This document shows, piece after piece, positions 30,879 through 44,376 of a DNA stretch of 64,000 bases. The stretch comes from Dictyostelium discoideum. Taxonomy: Eukaryota. A program made the position numbers and the translations under genes. Each line of letters begins with the position of its first letter. Within the stretch, counting starts at the first letter, position 1. The notes under the pieces are model-generated. The model saw nothing but the letters and a program-made list of their open reading frames with translations. It did no database searches and was not told where the DNA came from. The DNA lies in the NCBI GenBank assembly GCA_000004695.1, contig CM000153.2, positions 3,136,001-3,200,000 of the forward strand. The letters run 5' to 3'.

Positions 30879-31823
30879 TTAGTGAATGACATGATATCCG
30901 AATTTACGAGTGTGTAAGATGGAAGAAGTCAAGAAAATAGTAATAAATGAGACAATTGCAGCTGCAAGTGAGCAATACCAACCCTAAATTTAATTAAAAA
31001 AAAAAAATATATATATGTTAGTGTTGGTGTTTTTTTTTTTTTAAAAAAAAAAAAAAAAACTATTAATACTTACGATGGATGGACCCCAAGAAAAGAGGGA
31101 ATCACTTCCTTTGAATTTACTACAGATACCAGAATCAAGAATACTTTTCTCCATTGAAAATGGTAATGAAAGACCATCAGTGGCATCTTCACAGAGTGCT
31201 TTGTTTAATCTTAATAATAATAAAGTTGAAAGTACATTGAAAATACATAACAAGATTGACATAACAAATAATGCCTTTCTACCTTTTTTATGAACACGTT
31301 TGAATAATGCAACTAATGTAATTAAAAGCATAATACAAGCCTGAAAATAGAAATTGGAATTTTTTTTTTTTTTTTTTTTTTTATTTTTTTTTTTAATTAT
31401 TATATTTTAAAAAGGGATTAATAATAAGTTAGTTTAATTTTTATATTTAAATTTATATTTTTAATTAAAATTTTAATGGTCCAATTGATTCAGATTTTTT
31501 TTTTTTTTTTTTTTTTTTGTCGGAGATATTTTTTATTTTTTTTATTTTTTTTATATTTAACTTACAAATGCAAAAGATACAACTACAAAGGCAAAACAAG
31601 TGTAAAGAGTATTTTCAGTTTTTGAGTTTGTATTCCAATCAATATTTTTACCTCCTTCTCCCATTAATCCACCTCTATTGATACCAAAAGTTATAGAGGA
31701 TGCTAAACTGAATGTGAATTGATACCAATTGGTATCTGGTAAGAATGAATAAACATTTAAACCAATGACTGCTCCTAAAAAGAGAATTGTAACGACTCCA
31801 ACAATTATATTATGTTTTGACAT
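30879..31823 (-). CDS. Small tetraspan (4-TM) membrane protein, about 209 aa. Three exons: 31566..31823 (ATG at 31823), about 31075..31341, and 30879..30983. Introns have GTAAGT donors with TTTTCAG / TTTAG acceptors.
   Basis: Exon 1 encodes MSKHNIIVGVVTILFLGAVIGLNVYSF...LYTCFAFVVVSFAF. Exon 2 encodes ACIMLLITLVALFKRVHKKGRKALFVMSILLCIFNVLSTLLLLRL...SWGPSI. Exon 3 encodes GWYCSLAAAIVSFITIFLTSSILHTRKFGYHVIH*. There are four hydrophobic helices; the topology is MARVEL/CASP-like, but the family assignment is tentative. The exon-2 lower boundary may be off by one. Confidence 0.6.
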
Positions 31824-32394
31824 TTTTATTTATCTCACCTGCGCGCTAATTATTTGTGTGTATCAGTGAAAATTTGTGTGTGAATAAAAATAATATATTG
31901 TGTTTAAAAAAAAAAAATCTTTTTTTAAATTTTTATTTTTATTTTTTTTTTTTGAAAATAAAAAAAAATTTATTTAAATTTATTTATTTATTTAATTATT
32001 TATTTAATTATAAATAATTTATTTATTATATGAATGTTGATTTATATAGGAAAAGAAAAAAAATTAAAAAAAAATGAAAATAAGAAAAGGTTTTTGAAAA
32101 AAAAAAAAAAAAAAAAAAAAATTAAAAAATTAAATAAAAATAATAAAATTGTTATGGTTTTTTTTTTTAGTCTTTTGGGTCTTAATAAAAAAAATTCAAA
32201 TAAAATTTTTTTTTTATATTTTAATTTTTTAAAAAAAGATATTTTTTGACAGATTTTTCTTTTCCATATTAATTTTTTTTATTTTTTATTTTAATTTTTT
32301 TTCGTACAATTTTTTAAAAATCCAATCAACATTGTTGGTGTTTAACTCAATTTTTCATTTTATTTTATTATTTATTATTTTTTTTATTGTTTTT

Positions 32395-32645
32395 TTATTT
32401 TTATTATTTTTTTTTTTTTTTTTTTTTTTAATTTATTAAAAATTGAAGTAATACAGAATTTTTAAGTTCTACCATATAATTGAGTACCATTATATTTCTT
32501 TAAGGCAGCCATTTCACCGTTTTGTCTTGAATAGATGACCTAACCAGTACCATCACTTCTACCACTATTGTCATAATGAATTTTAATTTGTTTAATTTAA
32601 ATAATTGTAAACTTTTTCAATGTGGTCCATTAAATTACAATATAT

Positions 32646-32650
<5 letters not shown>
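32395..32650 (-). pseudogene. Truncated, decayed duplicate of the 3' end of the Aly/REF gene at 33327..34469. It covers the second half of the RRM plus the poly-T/aatttattaaaaatt flank, has internal deletions, and carries an in-frame stop.
   Basis: Positions 32461..32600 are about 90% identical to 33371..33510. Both copies share the flanking ttttt...aatttattaaaaatt. The copy lacks about 110 nt that the gene has (33511..33600 and 33346..33365). On the minus strand it reads ..IHYDNSGRSDGTG-stop (TAT to TAG). Confidence 0.6.
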
Positions 32651-32676
<26 letters not shown>

Positions 32677-32774
32677 TTATTTTAAAATGTGATAAAAATT
32701 TATTGATTAATTTATTGAATTATCATTATTATTATTATTATTGTTTTTTTATTATTTGTGGGTCTTTATTATTA

Positions 32775-32812
<38 letters not shown>

Positions 32813-33294
32813 AACTAATATCCAACAATACTATATGGTTTGTGAAGTGGATATTTTTTTTTTTTTTTTTGTTATTTGGATTATTATTATTATTACTATT
32901 TGGTTAATACTTGAGTTATAAGTTTGGACAAAAATAAAAATAAAAAATAAAAAAAATAAAAAAAGAAATAATAAAAAAAAAAGAAAAGAACAATTATTAT
33001 TTTAAAAAAAAAATAAGATTGATAGTATTTTGTTATAAATTTGGTAAATGTAATAATTATTATTATCATTACAATGATTATAATAAATAAATATTTTTTA
33101 TTTTTAGGGAAATTTTTTTCGAAATTTAGCTTTCTTACCCCTCTCTTTCCACACCAAAATACACTGCATATACATAGTTTTAAAATACAATAAAATTTTT
33201 TTTTTTTTTTTTTAATTATTTGGAATAAATCCAAAAAAATAAAAAAACCAATTTTAAAAAGTTATTTACTTTCAAGTTTTCTCCAAATTTTTTA

Positions 33295-33326
<32 letters not shown>

Positions 33327-34469
33327 TTAAAAATTCTTTCTTACATCCTCTTGTAAAGATGGTCCAGTTGTAATTTTTAAAGTTCTACCATCTAATTGAG
33401 CACCATTGTATTTCTTTAAGGCAGCCATTGCATCATTGTGTCTTGAATAGATGACATAACCAGTACCATCACTTCTACCACTATGATCATAATGAATTTT
33501 AATTTGTTTAATTTCACCTAAAGAATCGAATAAAACCTTGAGATCAGCTTCACTAATAGCATGATGAAGGTTTGAAATATTTAATCTTGAACCTGTAAAT
33601 AATTGTAAACTTTTTCCTGTTGGTCCATTATAGCCACCACCACCACTATTACGTCTTTCAAATAGAGTTGGACCACTACCAGTTGAGTGATCACTATCAT
33701 ATGAATTACGACGAATATTAATTCTACTACCACCACTGCCACTACTACCATTATCAACACTATATCTACTACTAATACTTCTACCACCACTACTGATACG
33801 ACTATCAAAATTATTTCTACTTGATCTAATTATTGGTCTTGATAATGATGAATTTCTATCTACAGTTTTTGTAATTCTAATTCTTGGTAAATTATTATTA
33901 TCAAATCTTGATGGAGTATCTTGTCTTTCTCTTACCTCTTTTTTAGTTGTTGTTGTATTGTTTTGAATTGTAATCTTTAATGGTGGTGGTGCTGATGATG
34001 ATGATGATGATGATGATGTGGTAGTAGTGGTTGTGGTTGTATTATGAGATCTAACTGGTATCCTTCTTAATGGTTTTGTACTACCACTGCCACCACCACC
34101 ACTACTACCACCACCACCACCATTTATTGATGTTGTATCTAATCTAGCTGTAAATTTAACTGGTGATGACTCATTCTTTTTATTATTATTTTATTATTAT
34201 TATTATTTTGGTTATTTATTTATTTTTTTAAAAAAGTGATAAATAATTTATTGATTAATTGATTGACTTTTTTTTTTTTTTTATTATTATTATTTTATTT
34301 ATTTATTTTTTTTTTTTTTTTATGATTATTTTACCTTAAAATTATTTCTAATATTTATTCTTCTTTGAAAAGTTTTTGGGGAATCTGTATTATTAAATCT
34401 ACGGGCTCTACCACCACTTTGGCTTGATTTATTATTTTTTATATATTGATCAAGTGAAATATCCTCCAT
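33327..34469 (-). CDS. thoc4: Aly/REF RNA export factor (THO complex subunit 4), about 327 aa. Two exons: 34335..34469 (ATG at 34469) and 33327..34175. Intron 34176..34334 has donor GTAAAA and acceptor AAAAAG.
   Basis: The N-terminal UAP56-binding motif MEDISLDQYIKNNKSSQSGGRARRF matches Aly MSLDDIIKLNR..GGRG. A Gly/Arg/Ser low-complexity region follows. The RRM is LQLFTGSRLNISNLHHAISEADLKVLFDSLGEIKQIKIHYDHSGRSDGTGYVIYSRHNDAMAALKKYNGAQLDGRTLKI (Aly/REF ..[71 protein letters not shown]). Exon 2 contains no start codon in frame, so it is absent from the ORF track. The protein ends ..QEDVRKNF*; a possible GTAAGA donor before the stop and a further C-terminal exon cannot be excluded. Confidence 0.8.
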
Positions 34470-34603
34470 TTTTTATTTTATCTTATTTTTTTTTATTTTT
34501 GTTATATATATAAATATTAAATAAATAATGTATAGGAAAGAAATAAAAAGTTAATGAAAAATTCAAAGGTGAACAAAATTAATTGAAAATAAAATTAAAA
34601 AAA

Positions 34604-34636
<33 letters not shown>

Positions 34637-34835
34637 AAAATTGAAAATTGAAAAAAAAAAAAAAAAAAAAAAAAAATTAAAATTTAAAAATAACTTTTTT
34701 TTTTTATTTCTTCCCAAAAGGGAAGATCAAAACTTTGATTTGATTTTTTAAAATCTTTTTTTATTTTTATTTTTATTCTTTATTTGTATTTTATTTTTAG
34801 TTTTATTTATTTTTTTTTTTTTTTTTTTTTTTTTT

Positions 34836-35882
34836 CTATTCTTCCATTTCCTTATCTTCCATTTCTTCAGAGGTTGTTGTTGTTGGGTTTGTTTCGACAT
34901 TTGATTCTTCAGTTGTAGCGGTAGTAGTGGTAGAGGTAGTAGAAGTGGTAGTAGTAGTTGTAGTTGGTGGTGAAGTTTGTTTTGGTGGATTTTCAGCTTC
35001 ATATAAGATTAAGAGTGAACCATCAAGTTCTACACCACTATATCTTTCAATTGAAGCCAAAGCATGAGTTTTCTTTTTAAATATAACGGTAGCAGTTGAA
35101 TTGTTTGTATCCAATTCAAAATCTTTTAAGGAACCAATAACACCAAACATATAAGCAATATCGGAAGGTATAATACTTTTTGGTAAATTTACAACCTTTA
35201 CACTAAAACTGAGTTCATTACCTTTTTCATCATATTCCAATTCATCGGCATCATCAGCATTATTGCTATTATTGTTACCATTGGTGGTATTATCTTTAGT
35301 ATTATCGTTCATTGATGCAGTTGTAGGCTTTTTCACTTGACTATAGTCTCTAATACCTCTTGGATCGAAAAATTTATGATCTATACTATCTGTAATCGAT
35401 GTTCTTGGTATATTCTTTAATCTACTATTGTTATGATATTGTGGGTACTTTTTAATATAATTTGGTGATACATTGTTTTTATTAAATCTATTATTACTAT
35501 TTACAAATTGTTGTTGTTGTTGTGGTTGATTTCTATTAAATAACCCTCTATTTTGGAATTGTGGGCTACCATGTGGTTGATTATATTTATTATTATTGTA
35601 GTTGTTGTTGTTATTGATTGTAACTTTAAATTGTTGATGTTGGTGTTGTTGATTTTGTGATTTTTTAATATATGGTTTCTTTTGTGACTTAACAATATCA
35701 TCGAGTGATGTCTCTAATACATTTAATTTTGGTGAGGTAGATGATTCTTTGGTTGTTGTAGTTGGTTTATCACCCCCTTTATTGAATGATCCTCTTCCCT
35801 TTTTTGCTGCCCTATTTGCTTTAACTATATCATCCAAACTAACAGACATATACTGATTTTTAATTTGTTCAGAGTCTTGCAT
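34836..35882 (-). CDS. Second Aly/REF-family protein, 348 aa, with two N-terminal UAP56-binding-type motifs and a C-terminal RRM-like domain. It lies in tandem immediately upstream of the Aly/REF gene.
   Basis: MSVSLDDIVKANRAAKKGRG and LETSLDDIVKSQKK are both Aly/UIF-type UBMs. Asn/Gln low-complexity sequence follows. The C-terminal segment LSFSVKVVNLPKSIIPSDIAYMFGVIGSLKDFELDTNNSTATVIFKKKTHALASIERYSGVELDGSLLILYEA is RRM-like, with a YNGV.LDG-type ending. An acidic T-rich tail follows. Confidence 0.7.
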   Translation of the reverse strand: MQDSEQIKNQYMSVSLDDIVKANRAAKKGRGSFNKGGDKPTTTTKESSTSPKLNVLETSLDDIVKSQKKPYIKKSQNQQHQHQQFKVTINNNNNYNNNKYNQPHGSPQFQNRGLFNRNQPQQQQQFVNSNNRFNKNNVSPNYIKKYPQYHNNSRLKNIPRTSITDSIDHKFFDPRGIRDYSQVKKPTTASMNDNTKDNTTNGNNNSNNADDADELEYDEKGNELSFSVKVVNLPKSIIPSDIAYMFGVIGSLKDFELDTNNSTATVIFKKKTHALASIERYSGVELDGSLLILYEAENPPKQTSPPTTTTTTTSTTSTTTTATTEESNVETNPTTTTSEEMEDKEMEE

Positions 35883-37379
35883 TATTTAATATTATAAATA
35901 TATAAAAAAAAATTAAAAAATTATAAAAAAAAAAAATGAAAAAAAAAAAAAATGAAAAAAAAGTTAATTTGAAAAAATTTAAAAAAAAAAAAAAAAATAA
36001 AAATAAAAATAAAAAACAAAAAAAAAGATTTGGAAATTCATTTAAATGGATTAATTTTAACTATATATTATTATTATTATTTTTTTTTTTTTATTTTTTT
36101 TATTTTTTTTTATTTTTTTTTATTCTTTTTTATTCTTTTTTTTAAAAAAAAATTGTTGTATAATAGATTTTATATATAATCATTCAATTTTTCCATTTAT
36201 ATATAATCTTTAATAATAGATTATATATAAAAGGATAATAATTTATCTTTTTTAATTTTTTTATTTGGAACAAGTGATTTTTTTTCAATGTTTGTTTTTT
36301 TTAATCATTTTTTTTTTTAGCCATCTTTTTTTTTAGTTTTATTTTTTTTTTTTTGGAATAAGCGATTTTTTTTTTTTTCCCGATTGATGAGTTGTAATTA
36401 AAGTATGAAAATAAATTTCTTTTTTGCTTTTTATTTTTTTTTATTTTTTTTTTTTATTTTTTTTTTTTTTTTGAAAAATGTGGTAAATAAAATTTCAATG
36501 TGACAAATAAAATTTTTCGATTTCTTTTGACACCATTAATCGTTATGGCTTTGGAATCATTTGCACCACGTTGGAATTTTTTTTTTTTTTTTTTTTTTTA
36601 TTTTTTTTTTTTTTTTAAATTTTTTTTTACCAGTAGAACAAGTCGTTAAATTTTTTTTTTTTTTTTTAATTCATAAAAAAAAAATTAAAAAAAATAAAAA
36701 AAAAAATAAAAAAAAAAAAACAAATCTACACTGGGTTAAATCATTTTTTTTTTATTATTTTCTTTTTTTTTTTTTGTTTTTTTTCTATTTAATTAACCTC
36801 TATTTCAATAAACACCTTTATATTTACCCCCTTTTCTATTTATCTATTTATTTACTTTTTTTTTTTTGTTTTTTTTATCATCATCACCATCATTGTTTTT
36901 TTTATTTATAATTTTGTAATTTTTTAAATTTTAAATTTTTTTTTTTTTTTTCGTGTGTGATATAAACCTTTTTTTTTAATTTTTTTTCATTCATTTTTTT
37001 TTTACATATAAATATAAATAAATAATAATAATAATACACATTACACATTTATTTTAATAAAAGAAAAATAATAAATAAATAAATAAATAAATAAAAAATT
37101 TTTTTAAAAAAAAATTAAATAAAAATTAAATTTGTAATATTAAAAAAAAAAAAAAAAAAATCGAAAAATAATAAGGAAGTAATACCATTTTATTTGAAAA
37201 AAAAAAAAAAAAAAAATCAAATCAAATCAAATCAAATCTTCCATTACTATTATTGGTATCATTACTCTAGTGGGTTTAAATAATTAAATAAATAATCAAT
37301 CTACCAAACAAACAAATAAACAAATAAAATCTAAAAAAAAAAAAAAACCAAATTATACATATATATATATATATCCATC

Positions 37380-38146
37380 ATGGCCGATTTACAAGAAAAT
37401 GAAATGGATTTTGAAAAAATCGTTAGGGAGGTAGAAATTGGTATTAAAGATTTAAGTAAAAATAAAAGAGGTATAGAAGCAAGAGGTGTAAGTATTTTTT
37501 TTTTTTTTTTTTTTTTCTAATTTTTTTATTAATAAATTAATTTTTTTTTTTTTAGGGAGCAGAATTATTAAGAAATAGAATAGGAAGAGCAAAACAAATT
37601 TTAAGATCATATAAATTAGATTTTAGAGAATTAGCTAAAAATGAACAAAAACCCTATCAAGATAAAGCAAATCAATATGAAGAACAAATAAAAACATTAG
37701 AGAATGATTTAAATTGGGCAGAAAAGAATAGTGAAAATGGTGGTGGAGGTGGTGGTAGTGGTGGTAATAATAGTCAATCAATAGATACAGAATATCAAGA
37801 AACAATGCAAAAAGCAAAGAAAATTCAACAACAAGATATAGATACAACACATAGAATTTTATCAGAAGTTGGTCAAATTAATGAAGTTGGTACATCCACT
37901 TTAGAGGAGATGGCAGTTCAAGAGGAACAAATGAAAAGAATTCAAAAAGATATGGAAGAAATTGATGGTAACTTAAAATTAGCAACTAGACAAATGAGAG
38001 CATTCGCTAGAAAAATGGCAACTGATAAACTTATTATGGGTCTTGTACTATTAATTGTTGCTGCTATCATTTTTGTAATCGTTTATTCAATCGTTAAACC
38101 TAAATCTAAAACTGTTCAACAAAATGTTACTGGTTCAACCCAATAA
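37380..38146 (+). CDS. NPSN-type Qb-SNARE (novel plant SNARE family), 232 aa. Two exons: 37380..37487 and 37556..38146; intron 37488..37555 (GTAAGT...TTTAG).
   Basis: The SNARE motif plus TM anchor is AKKIQQQDIDTTHRILSEVGQINEVGTSTLEEMAVQEEQMKRIQKDMEEIDGNLKLATRQMRAFARKMATDKLIMGLVLLIVAAIIFVIVYSIVKP. This is collinear with Arabidopsis NPSN11 (GKKIVQETINVGTDTSAALKAQTDQMSRVVNELDSIHFSLKKASKLVKEIGRQVATDKCIMAFLFLIVIGVIAIIIVKIVNP). The N-terminal coiled coil MADLQENEMDFEKIVREVEIGIKDLSK resembles the NPSN N-terminus. Confidence 0.85.
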
Positions 38147-38563
38147 TAAAATTTTGAATTTTTAAAATAGTAAAAAAAATAAAATAAAATAAAAAAAAAA
38201 AAAATAAAAAAAATACCAATATTGTATTGTATTTGATTATCACTTTATCTTTTTCTTTTTATTTTTAATTTTAATTTATTAAAAAATATAAAAATAGATT
38301 AGGGAAAAAAAAAAAAAAAAAAATGCTGACATTGCACACCCTTTTTTTTTTTTTTTTTCTGTGAATTAATATGCCAAATTTCGATTTCTTGGATTTTTGT
38401 ATTTAAGAAAATGGTTTTTTTTTTTTTTTTTTATTTTTTTTTTTAATTCTTAATTGTATTTAATTACCTTGATATAAATAAATAAAATAAAAAAAAACAA
38501 AACAAAACAAAATTTTATAAATATTTAATACATATATTAAAAAAAAAAAAATAATAAATTTTA

Positions 38564-38738
38564 ATGGCCGATATTATAGAAAATGAAATTGAACTTGATA
38601 AAATAATTAAAGAAGTAGAAAAAAATATTAAAGATTTAAGAAAAAATAAAAAAGATATTGAATCTAGAGGGGTAAGTAATAAGAATAAATTTATTTTTAA
38701 ATAAATTTTTTTTACTAATCAATTTTTTTAAATAAATA

Positions 38739-38773
<35 letters not shown>

Positions 38774-38989
38774 TCCCAAAGGGAGTTGATCTTATAAAAA
38801 ATAAAAAAATTGGGCCAAAACAATTTTTAAAATCTTCCAAAATAATTTAAAAAAATTTCCCAAAACTGAATTGGCAAAGTTTGATTGTAAAGGTTATGGT
38901 TTTTAAAAACCAATTAAAAAATTTAAAAATGGTTTTAATTGGGTTGAAAATATTATGGGTAAAAATGAAAGGGGGAGTAGGGGTACTAG

Positions 38990-39020
<31 letters not shown>

Positions 39021-39377
39021 AAGGGGGGTAATAATAATAATAATAATGGAAATTTTAAAAATGGATATTCCATTTTCAAATGTAATGGAAAAAGCGAAAG
39101 ATAAGAACCAGATTAAAAAATTTCCAATGGAATATTACAAACTGTTATTGAAACTAATAATATTGGTACGACAACATTGGCAGAAATGAATATTCAAGAA
39201 GAACCAATTTATAGAATAAAAAATGATATGGATTTAATTGATAGTAATTTAAAATTAGCCCCAAGACAAATGAGATCCATTGCAAGGAAAATGGCAACTG
39301 ATAAAATTATTTTAGGTTTAATATTATTAATTATTGCTGGGAAAAATGTTGTAATTGTTTATAAAACTTTTAAATAA
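38564..39377 (+). pseudogene. Decayed tandem paralog of the NPSN SNARE gene. Exon 1 (38564..38671) and its GTAAGT intron are intact. The middle of exon 2 has several frameshifts and stops. The SNARE C-terminal half plus TM is still open in one frame (39120..39377).
   Basis: MADIIENEIELDKIIKEVEKNIKDLRKNKKDIESRG is collinear with gene 1 exon 1 and has the same 108-nt length. After the CCAAAG acceptor the reading frame hits TAA within 25 codons; G/C homopolymer indels are visible (gggccaaaac, agggggag, aagggggg, ccccaag). The 3' part reads ETNNIGTTTLAEMNIQEEPIYRIKNDMDLIDSNLKLAPRQMRSIARKMATDKIILGLILLIIAGKNVVIVYKTFK*, homologous to gene 1 (EVGTSTLEEMAVQEEQMKRIQKDMEEIDGNLKLATRQMRAFARKMATDKLIMGLVLLIVAA). 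Confidence 0.65.
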
Positions 39378-39430
39378 ATAAAATTTAAAGTAATCAATCC
39401 AAAGATGATAATAATAATATCCCCCCCTTT

Positions 39431-39470
<40 letters not shown>

Positions 39471-39504
39471 TATTATTTTAATTATTGGATAAATGTAATA
39501 AACA

Positions 39505-42374
<2,870 letters not shown>

Positions 42375-42521
42375 TTTTTATTTTTTATTTTTTATATTTT
42401 TATTTTCTGCTTTTTTGTTTTTATTATTATTGTTTTTATTATTATTAATATTATTATTAATAATGATAATGGGGATATTAGCTGATATAAAAAATTTTGT
42501 ATGCAAAAGTCGAGAGGTGGG

Positions 42522-42571
<50 letters not shown>

Positions 42572-43166
42572 TTTCTATACAAAATAAAAATATTATTAAA
42601 ATAAATAAAAATTTTTTAAAAAAAAAAAAATAATAATAATAAAAATTTATAAATTCGCTTATTTGGGTGATGGATGTTTTTTTTTTTTTTTTTTTTTTTT
42701 CTACTTTCACTTCCAAATTAAAAATCCATTTTATATTTTTTTTATTTTTTTAATATTTTTTTTTTTTTTTTTTTATTTTTTTTTTTTTTTTAAAAAACAC
42801 AACAGCTAAAAATTTTTAATCGAGGATCCTGCAAATTTAAAATTAAAAGATTTCAAAATTATTGTAAAACCATTTTATTTGTAAAATCTTTTTTATTATT
42901 ATTATTTTTTTTTTTTTTTTTTTATTAGTACCTTTTTTTTTTTTATTATTTTATTATTTTTTTTTTATCTAAAAAAAGGACAATTGGAAAAATCAAAAAA
43001 AGTTTATATAAAAATAACACATTGATCTTCTATTTTTTTTTAAATTATTTATTTTTATTATTTATTTGTATTAAAAATAATAATAACCATCTAAATAACA
43101 AGAATGAGCGAAATTATTAGTGTAAAACTTAAATAGATAATTTCAAACATTAGTTTTTTTCAAAGG

Positions 43167-44376
43167 TTATAAAACCTGTCTTTTATTTCCACCTTTATTT
43201 TGTTTTTCTTTTAATTTTTCTTGATATTCAATTTCTTTTGAAGATAATTTCTTTGTTTTCTTTGTATTATTTTTATTTTTATTTGCAATTTCAGTGGATG
43301 ATGCTTTTTTTGAAGTATTTTTATTGATTTTATAAGTTTTTGATTTTGATTTTGATTTTTCATGATCATCTTCATTATCACTATTATCATTATCTTCTTC
43401 TTCTTCGGTATCACTATCAAGATTTAAAAATACAGAGTTTGATTGTTTTGATTTTATTGGTCGAACTATAACTTCTTCATCACTTTCATATTCATCAGTA
43501 CTTTCATCTTTTTTATTATTATTATCACTATCTTCATCTTCATCTTCATCTTCACTATATGCTAATTTTTTAAGATTATTCTTTTTCTTTAATTTCTTAT
43601 TAAACTTTTTTGTTGCTGCAGAGGTGGTTGAAGATGTTGTTGTTGTTGTTGCTGTTGCTGTTGTTGAATTTGTTTTTTTATTTGAATTATCAATTTGATT
43701 ATTTATTGAGTCTTTATTTTCATTAATATTTGAATAAAGATTAGATAAACCACTAGTGATATATTGTTCTTTTGTGAAACCAGGAGGTGGCCAAGAGATT
43801 ACAATATTACCATCAACACAATCCTTTAAGATTTCTAAACCAGCACGATGTGGATCAGGTCTACCAGATTTTGCATAAACATAACCTCTTTTCAAAGCAA
43901 ATGCTTCACAAATTGAATAAGAACTCCAAGGTTGGTTCTCCTCATCTGGTGGCTTTGATAATTTATAAATTTGTTCAATTGGAACACGTTCAGCCAAATA
44001 TTGAATCGCAGAGAATGGTTCACGAACTTGAGCAATTGGGAATAGACCACACAATATTTGTAATTGTTTTGGTCTATCCAATGCAGGAAATACCAAACCT
44101 GGACAATCCAATAACTGAATATTCTTTGTGAAAACAATAGTTTGAAAATGTTTAGTATGACCTGGTGTTCTACTCGTACTAACAACTTTCTTACCCATCA
44201 TACCATTAATTAATGACGATTTACCAACATTTGGATGACCAACCATACCAATTATAATTTTATCATTATCATTATTATTTTGATTATTTTCTTCTTCTTC
44301 TTCTTCTTTTTCTTCTTCACCATCCTCATCATCATCATCCTCATCACTATCTTCATCACTACCTTCATCAGAATGA

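Follow-up and report, generated by a model that had tools for sequence, protein, structure and literature searches.

We analysed a window of 64,000 nucleotides of Dictyostelium discoideum DNA (contig CM000153.2, positions 3,136,001 to 3,200,000 of the forward strand; all positions below are those of the window), in which a gene for a SNARE of the NPSN type (copy 1) is followed by a second copy that, as written, looks heavily decayed (copy 2). About 95% of the apparent decay of copy 2 is a sequencing artefact of the window record. The locus holds a tandem paralog of an ordinary kind, specific to its lineage; the AX4 lineage probably carries a frameshift null allele of it, and the reference sequence carries an artefact. 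In particular, we are highly confident of two things taken together: that a patch of 658 bp covering exon 2 of copy 2 reflects base-calling error and not decay, and that the otherwise kept paralog carries one real frameshift, a deletion of 4 bp.

Copy 1 spans positions 37380-38146 on the plus strand and, spliced at its single intron, encodes a product of 232 amino acids (aa) that matches DDB_G0285365 (XP_638268.1, Q54NB2) of D. discoideum AX4 residue for residue. The window is therefore chromosomal DNA of the AX4 genotype, and its record is most likely the AX4 reference record. Copy 2 starts at 38564, 417 nucleotides (nt) past the stop codon of copy 1, and opens with the same residues (MAD), in a region that is strongly AT-rich (GC content 0.13-0.28). 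As it stands in the window, it bears 61 substitutions, two 1-bp indels, two stops in the orthologous frame and one 4-bp deletion, and just the final ~85 codons of its second exon are open (Table 1).

We compared the window with the same locus in an independent assembly (GCA_054883475.1, CM142510.1, locus-tag prefix ACTFIT; hereafter L003), which encodes an identical copy 1 protein. Over 12.8 kb (window 31362-44180) the two sequences were 99.09% identical, and 61 of the 63 substitutions between them fell within 653 bp (38775-39427), while the remaining ~12.1 kb held two isolated ones, at 34683 and 36574. The sequences thus differed at a rate of 9.3% within the patch and of 0.017% outside it (Fisher p = 2e-77), and they were identical over exon 1 and the intron of copy 2. 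On the strength of two substitutions in 12.1 kb, the genotype of L003 would be essentially identical to that of the window. A literature search for a paper describing the new Dictyostelium assemblies found none. All other differences between the window and L003 concerned the length of A/T homopolymers (33295-33298, 34606-34677, 39428-39441 and 42519-42776), and every time the window was the longer of the two, by 1-14 bases.

The substitutions in the patch carry a distinct signature. At all 61 sites the base in the window is one that flanks the same site in L003, and at 52 of them it is the preceding base. Random substitutions simulated at the same sites (5000 simulations) gave an expectation of 26.7-32.5 such neighbour copies and a maximum of 45, and the natural divergence between L003 and another strain (L001, prefix ACTFIR) in the same gene, used as a control, gave 24 of 44. 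Of the 59 sites that could be polarised with L001 as the outgroup strain, 57 had the ancestral state in L003 and the derived state in the window. Errors are densest next to the T27 run, at 15-16 per 100 bp, and thin out to the right of it, to 3-5 per 100 bp. Moreover, the patch contains 12 G/C runs of at least 3 bases in the window versus 2 in L003, and the fraction of its bases that repeat the one before is 0.46 versus 0.37.

If the window were correct, copy 2 would be a heavily decayed pseudogene in AX4 and the differences from L003 would be true strain differences. Copy 2 as written, which changes frame several times and contains stops, agrees with such decay, as does a search of the protein collection, in which no AX4 protein model of copy 2 was found. 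However, real decay needs 61 substitutions in a stretch of 653 bp next to 12.1 kb that shows two, each of them a copy of the neighbouring base, and nearly all of the polarisable ones derived in the window; it also needs a patch with edges exactly at two long T-runs, beside an exon 1 and an intron free of differences. We consider it extremely unlikely. Gene conversion or a true mutation cluster was also evaluated as the source of the patch, and it was rejected because all 61 changes copy a neighbour and the boundaries coincide exactly with the poly-T runs. We know of no mutational process that puts 61 copy-the-neighbour changes into 650 bp on a branch of near-zero length.

The error signature suggests how the patch may have arisen. 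The 658 bp between the T27 and T36 runs would have been base-called from out-of-phase traces: polymerase slippage in the poly-T run would generate a lagging product, and many bases would then be called as the preceding one. Miscalling of this kind would have created the 61 false substitutions, two false 1-bp indels, two false stops and about ten of the G/C runs. As regards copy 2, the patch explains both 1-bp indels, both stops in the orthologous frame (TAA at 38904 and 39114) and 42 amino-acid changes.

A preliminary description of this DNA had reported a second copy sharing the exon 1 length and the intron position of copy 1, which we confirmed (108 nt, GTAAGT donor), and an exon 2 that is frameshifted and interrupted by stops in the middle, with its C-terminal half and transmembrane segment still open, which is true of the record as written. 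This picture fits the sequence record, but not the DNA of the organism. The proposal that the copy is decaying through several homopolymer indels did not hold: both 1-bp indels and both stops are absent from L003 and have the signature of base-calling error, and the damage in the window consists mainly of the substitutions, the indels being just the two of 1 bp (38844/5 and 39063) and one of 4 bp that is not in a homopolymer. Pseudogene status had been said to hinge on G/C homopolymer indels; the frame of copy 2 is indeed broken, but the G/C-run anomalies are missing from L003. The accompanying caveat, that the lesions in G/C runs might be assembly errors, was well placed. It had been coupled to the prospect of a single intact frame, and this is not what L003 shows, as the 4-bp deletion, to which the description had drawn no attention, persists there.

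At 39102/39103 both the window and L003 read GAT/AAGAAC, without the ATTC of the undeleted form (GATATTCAAGAAC), and in the protein alignment every orthologue has two residues at this site. The deletion is neither homopolymer-borne nor a neighbour-copy error. In L003 the second exon of copy 2 keeps a single frame as far as NVMKKAKD, after which it shifts, and the sequence past the shift (EQDKKITNGILQ and, further on, KMATDKIILGLILLIIAGIIVVIVYKTLK followed by the stop) is open in the -1 frame. The deletion falls in the linker that joins the N-terminal helical domain to the SNARE motif. In AX4, copy 2 is predicted to yield a product of 171 aa that consists of the N-terminal domain and a short out-of-frame tail, with neither SNARE motif nor anchor. 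We enumerated single-intron models for copy 2, and none restores the frame, either in the window or in L003. The AX4 genotype carries one 4-bp deletion that most likely makes copy 2 a recent null allele, a pseudogene. Copy 2 is probably a frameshift null allele in the AX4 lineage, with a loss of function that is predicted from its sequence.

The deletion site lies inside the window's low-quality patch, and the independence of L003 from the reference is itself deduced. The deletion might accordingly be an error in both assemblies (for example, if L003 had been polished or guided by the reference), with copy 2 intact in AX4. Against this stands the finding that 63 further positions of the patch differ between L003 and the window, so that L003 was not copied from the reference. 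Furthermore, ATTC is a non-repetitive 4 bp, unlike the neighbour-copy or homopolymer errors to which either sequencing technology is typically prone. A shared error is highly unlikely.

Another reading keeps AX4 copy 2 functional through a second intron (L003 7611-7726, 116 nt), which would remove the frameshift and leave a protein of 195 aa (ACTFIT_005896) that would retain the N-terminal domain, the SNARE motif and the transmembrane (TM) anchor. This model is the one annotated in L003 and, in an enumeration of GT..AG pairs, exactly this pair yields 195 aa; in addition, the downstream SNARE/TM frame is undamaged in L003, and the AX4 branch has no excess of nonsynonymous change. Conversely, the donor of the proposed intron is GTTACT, where 15 of the 16 aligned introns at the locus have GTAAGT. 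The removed segment is coding in every orthologue, so that 38 codons would be dropped, including the conserved YQxxMxxAK segment, and all seven intact orthologues have a single intron. Functional rescue by this intron is quite unlikely, and the 195-aa model is probably the way in which a gene predictor bypassed the 4-bp frameshift. That AX4 copy 2 is alive through intronization of former coding sequence (window ~38990-39105) is very unlikely in our judgement; if true, intronization would give a shortened yet complete NPSN paralog.

Some points weigh against the combination of an artefactual patch and a real AX4 frameshift that we favour. The sameness of strain between L003 and the window is inferred from the two substitutions in 12.1 kb, and slippage is inferred from the error signature and not from raw reads or traces. 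The submitters of L003 annotated copy 2 as a gene with a 195-aa protein (P0030 in our set), not as a pseudogene. Finally, the codon changes of copy 2 on the AX4 branch (5 synonymous and 9 nonsynonymous) do not differ from those of an intact lineage (8 and 13), with too few changes in all for a decision, and thus give no independent sign of relaxed constraint. As the AX4 branch resembles the intact one, the frameshift is probably recent.

Once the artefact is set aside, copy 2 can be compared with its relatives. A protein search with copy 1 retrieved its own orthologues, 90-97% identical, and a second set of proteins of 217-228 aa, 55-63% identical, with locus tags that adjoin those of the copy 1 orthologues. 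In all seven loci fetched other than the window and L003 (from two other D. discoideum strains, one D. cf. discoideum, D. citrinum, D. firmibasis and D. dimigraforme), an intact copy 2 stands beside copy 1, in tandem and on the same strand. A model with one intron recovers every intact copy 2; its donor follows nt 108, a position common to all orthologues except copy 2 of D. dimigraforme, in which the donor follows nt 99.

Pairwise ratios of nonsynonymous to synonymous divergence between species (dN/dS, Nei-Gojobori) were 0.26-0.41 for copy 2 and 0.07-0.24 for copy 1. Thus, copy 2 is under purifying selection, weaker than that on copy 1. The copy 2 values were higher inside the D. discoideum complex (0.43-0.60), from few changes. 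Neighbour joining with 200 bootstrap replicates recovered the copy 2 clade in 200/200, the copy 1 clade in 198/200 and the two together, without D. purpureum, in 180/200. This grouping dates the duplication after the D. purpureum split and makes it specific to the D. discoideum species group. On this history, the NPSN-type gene duplicated in tandem in the ancestor of D. discoideum, D. citrinum, D. dimigraforme and D. firmibasis, and copy 2 has since been retained as an intact, faster-evolving neighbour of copy 1.

Extra NPSN-like genes lie downstream of copy 2 in D. citrinum (locus L004, 3915-5154) and D. firmibasis (locus L005, 3966-5172). One of the extra copies stops before the ATDK motif and TM segment (tblastn to copy 1 residues 1-188, E 1e-40 to 1e-50) and the other retains just an N-terminal part; models of 139 and 169 aa and of 97 and 171 aa are annotated. 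The window has no counterpart of these genes, the next gene, on the minus strand, beginning at 39505. The NPSN array undergoes true gain and loss of copies, unlike the apparent decay in the window.

The loci L001 and L002 (prefixes ACTFIR and ACTFIW), both labelled D. discoideum, were 87% identical to window 33289-42098 over 9 kb, with about 5% mismatches and many indels. For those D. discoideum assemblies, dS was 0.015-0.03 in copy 1 and ~0.09 in copy 2. Such divergence is high for conspecific D. discoideum isolates and hints at cryptic lineages. Moreover, copy 2 of two strains (ACTFIR and ACTFIY) has Lys at the residue aligned to Q161 of copy 1, three positions past the 0-layer Gln, where Gln is found elsewhere. 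Loss of the 0-layer Gln (Q to K) in these copies was considered and discarded, since the alignment to SNAP-25 identified the variable residue as Q161 (aligned with SNAP-25 Q56) and not Q158.

NPSN corresponds to Qb.III.d in the Kloepper/Fasshauer classification, and its members are expected to act, together with the partners Qa-SynPM, Qc-Syp7 and R-VAMP7, in fusion at the plasma membrane or the cell plate. To place the dictyostelid proteins, their alignment was compared by hhalign with an aligned set of 12 proteins from the database, the majority of which bear the name "novel plant SNARE 11" (NPSN11); an NPSN11 sequence served only as bait to retrieve these proteins, and the test used the retrieved ones. 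The match extended over the full length (226 columns) with a probability of 99.4% and an E-value of 3.2e-21; pairwise BLASTP gave E 1e-9 and 36% identity over 56 aa. The Pfam N-terminal V-SNARE domain (PF05008) matched marginally, at 26.1 bits versus a cut-off of 25.9 (residues 1-89), and the Pfam matches to V-SNARE_C, SNARE and Sec20 were below threshold. A profile search for named plant NPSN matches returned unnamed protist SNAREs only.

The 0-layer residue Q158 is invariant in 18 of 18 sequences, every copy 2 included, and aligns with Q53 of SNAP-25, the 0-layer residue of the neuronal SNARE complex. Residues A191, T192, D193 and K194 (ATDK) are invariant in dictyostelids, as are A211, T212 and D213 in plant NPSN11; the two motifs align, and a hydrophobic stretch then follows. 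Among solved structures, the best matches were the N-terminal (Qb) helix of SNAP-25 (E 1e-10) and the Habc domain of Vti1a (1vcs, E 5e-8), the latter falling on the N-terminal domain of the dictyostelid profile. These comparisons, in which NPSN11 and the SNAP-25 N-terminal helix matched better than the Vti1 SNARE motif did, give indirect support to the placement of the dictyostelid proteins as putative members of the NPSN subfamily.

The preliminary description was right to call copy 1 an intact NPSN-type Qb-SNARE of 232 aa with one intron: the spliced model and the identity to the database protein bear out the structure, and the full-length NPSN11 match bears out the type. Copy 1 is an ordinary gene of this kind and is annotated already. 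The qualifier "plant/protist-specific" was loose, as NPSN has been traced back to the last eukaryotic common ancestor, animals and most fungi having lost it later (PMC5399786, PMC2639358). NPSN orthologues are known in Dictyostelium, and Qb trees place Dictyostelium sequences in NPSN (PMC5399786). In plants, according to work cited in PMC5399786, NPSN11 acts at the cell plate with KNOLLE. On the SNARE locus itself, a literature search with DDB_G0285365, XP_638268, Q54NB2, npsnA/npsnB and the neighbouring gene identifiers found nothing.

Upstream of copy 1, at window ~32460-34470 on the minus strand, lies an RRM-domain gene (347 aa in L003), identified by its gene-ID neighbourhood as DDB_G0285361. 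This is RNP1A, an essential RNA-binding protein that works with contractility-kit proteins (PMC12863306). On the other side, an open frame of 491 aa (39505-40980, minus strand), rich in poly-Q, poly-N and poly-Thr tracts and with no Pfam match on record, belongs to a larger gene, of 923 aa in L003, that adjoins copy 2 and is convergent with it. The features of the locus are collected in Table 1.

Table 1. Features of the tandem NPSN locus and of the faulty patch, in window coordinates
Feature	Position	Strand	Details
Copy 1 (DDB_G0285365) exon 1	37380..37487	+	108 nt; spliced translation equals XP_638268.1 / Q54NB2
Copy 1 intron	37488..37555	+	68 nt, GTAAGT...TAG; sole single-intron model yielding the database protein
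Copy 1 exon 2 with stop codon	37556..38146	+	591 nt; Qb SNARE motif (0-layer Q158), ATDK motif, TM anchor
Copy 2 exon 1	38564..38671	+	108 nt; window equals L003, zero differences
Copy 2 intron	38672..38781	+	110 nt, GTAAGT donor; position shared with the copy 1 intron; ends in the T27 run
T27 homopolymer, left edge of error patch	38748..38774		First difference from L003 at 38775
Low-quality reference patch	38775..39432		658 bp; 61 neighbour-copy substitutions and two 1-bp indels versus L003
Copy 2 exon 2, garbled as in the window	38782..39377	+	Frames 0, 2, 0, 2 in succession, with stops
Artefactual 1-bp deletion	38844..38845	+	G of L003 and L001 absent
Artefactual stop TAA	38904..38906	+	L003 reads GAA
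Artefactual 1-bp insertion (G)	39063..39063	+	Relative to L003
4-bp deletion taken as genuine, GAT[ATTC]AAGAAC	39102..39103	+	Common to window and L003; in no other strain or species
Artefactual stop TAA	39114..39116	+	L003 reads AAA
Open C-terminal stretch of copy 2	39120..39377	+	End of SNARE motif, ATDK motif, TM; PF12352 E 0.0013
T36 homopolymer (T22 in L003), right edge of error patch	39433..39468

These results document that NPSN was duplicated in tandem specifically in the D. discoideum species group and that the array has gained and lost copies. The standard laboratory genotype is probably without a working second copy, a point relevant to studies of Qb-SNAREs in AX strains. As regards the AX4 reference, a stretch of ~650 bp is about 9% wrong. 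Substitutions that copy an adjacent base right after a long homopolymer could be used as a diagnostic to expose other false pseudogenes, both in AX4 and in other AT-rich genomes of the Sanger era.

The patch resembles the post-homopolymer slippage of AT-rich assemblies from Sanger shotgun reads: its errors begin after T27 and end at T36, each miscalled base repeats a true neighbour, in most cases the one before it, and false G/C doublets and runs arise. It is assigned to this class from its error signature, not from traces or quality values. The AX4 allele of copy 2, for its part, recalls strain-specific unitary pseudogenes, in which a single disabling indel occurs in a gene that is intact among close relatives; likewise, a functional paralog is adjacent and could buffer the loss. 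It differs from them in having an alternative annotated model (P0030), and its losses of function and of expression are putative.

Among known SNAREs, Vti1 shares with copy 1 the Habc-like N-terminal domain, but its SNARE motif is a weaker match (E 9e-7) and it is without the ATDK motif. SNAP-25 has, like copy 1, a Qb helix with a 0-layer Gln, but it has a second (Qc) helix and no TM anchor or N-terminal domain. Compared with NPSN11, the Dictyostelium proteins are about 30 aa shorter and have a Gly/Asn-rich linker; the tandem second copy is confined to the D. discoideum species group, and the function in Dictyostelium is putative. In their overall architecture the NPSN11 proteins of Arabidopsis and other Brassicaceae are nonetheless like those of Dictyostelium, with an N-terminal helical domain, a Qb motif with a 0-layer Gln, the ATDK motif and a C-terminal TM segment.

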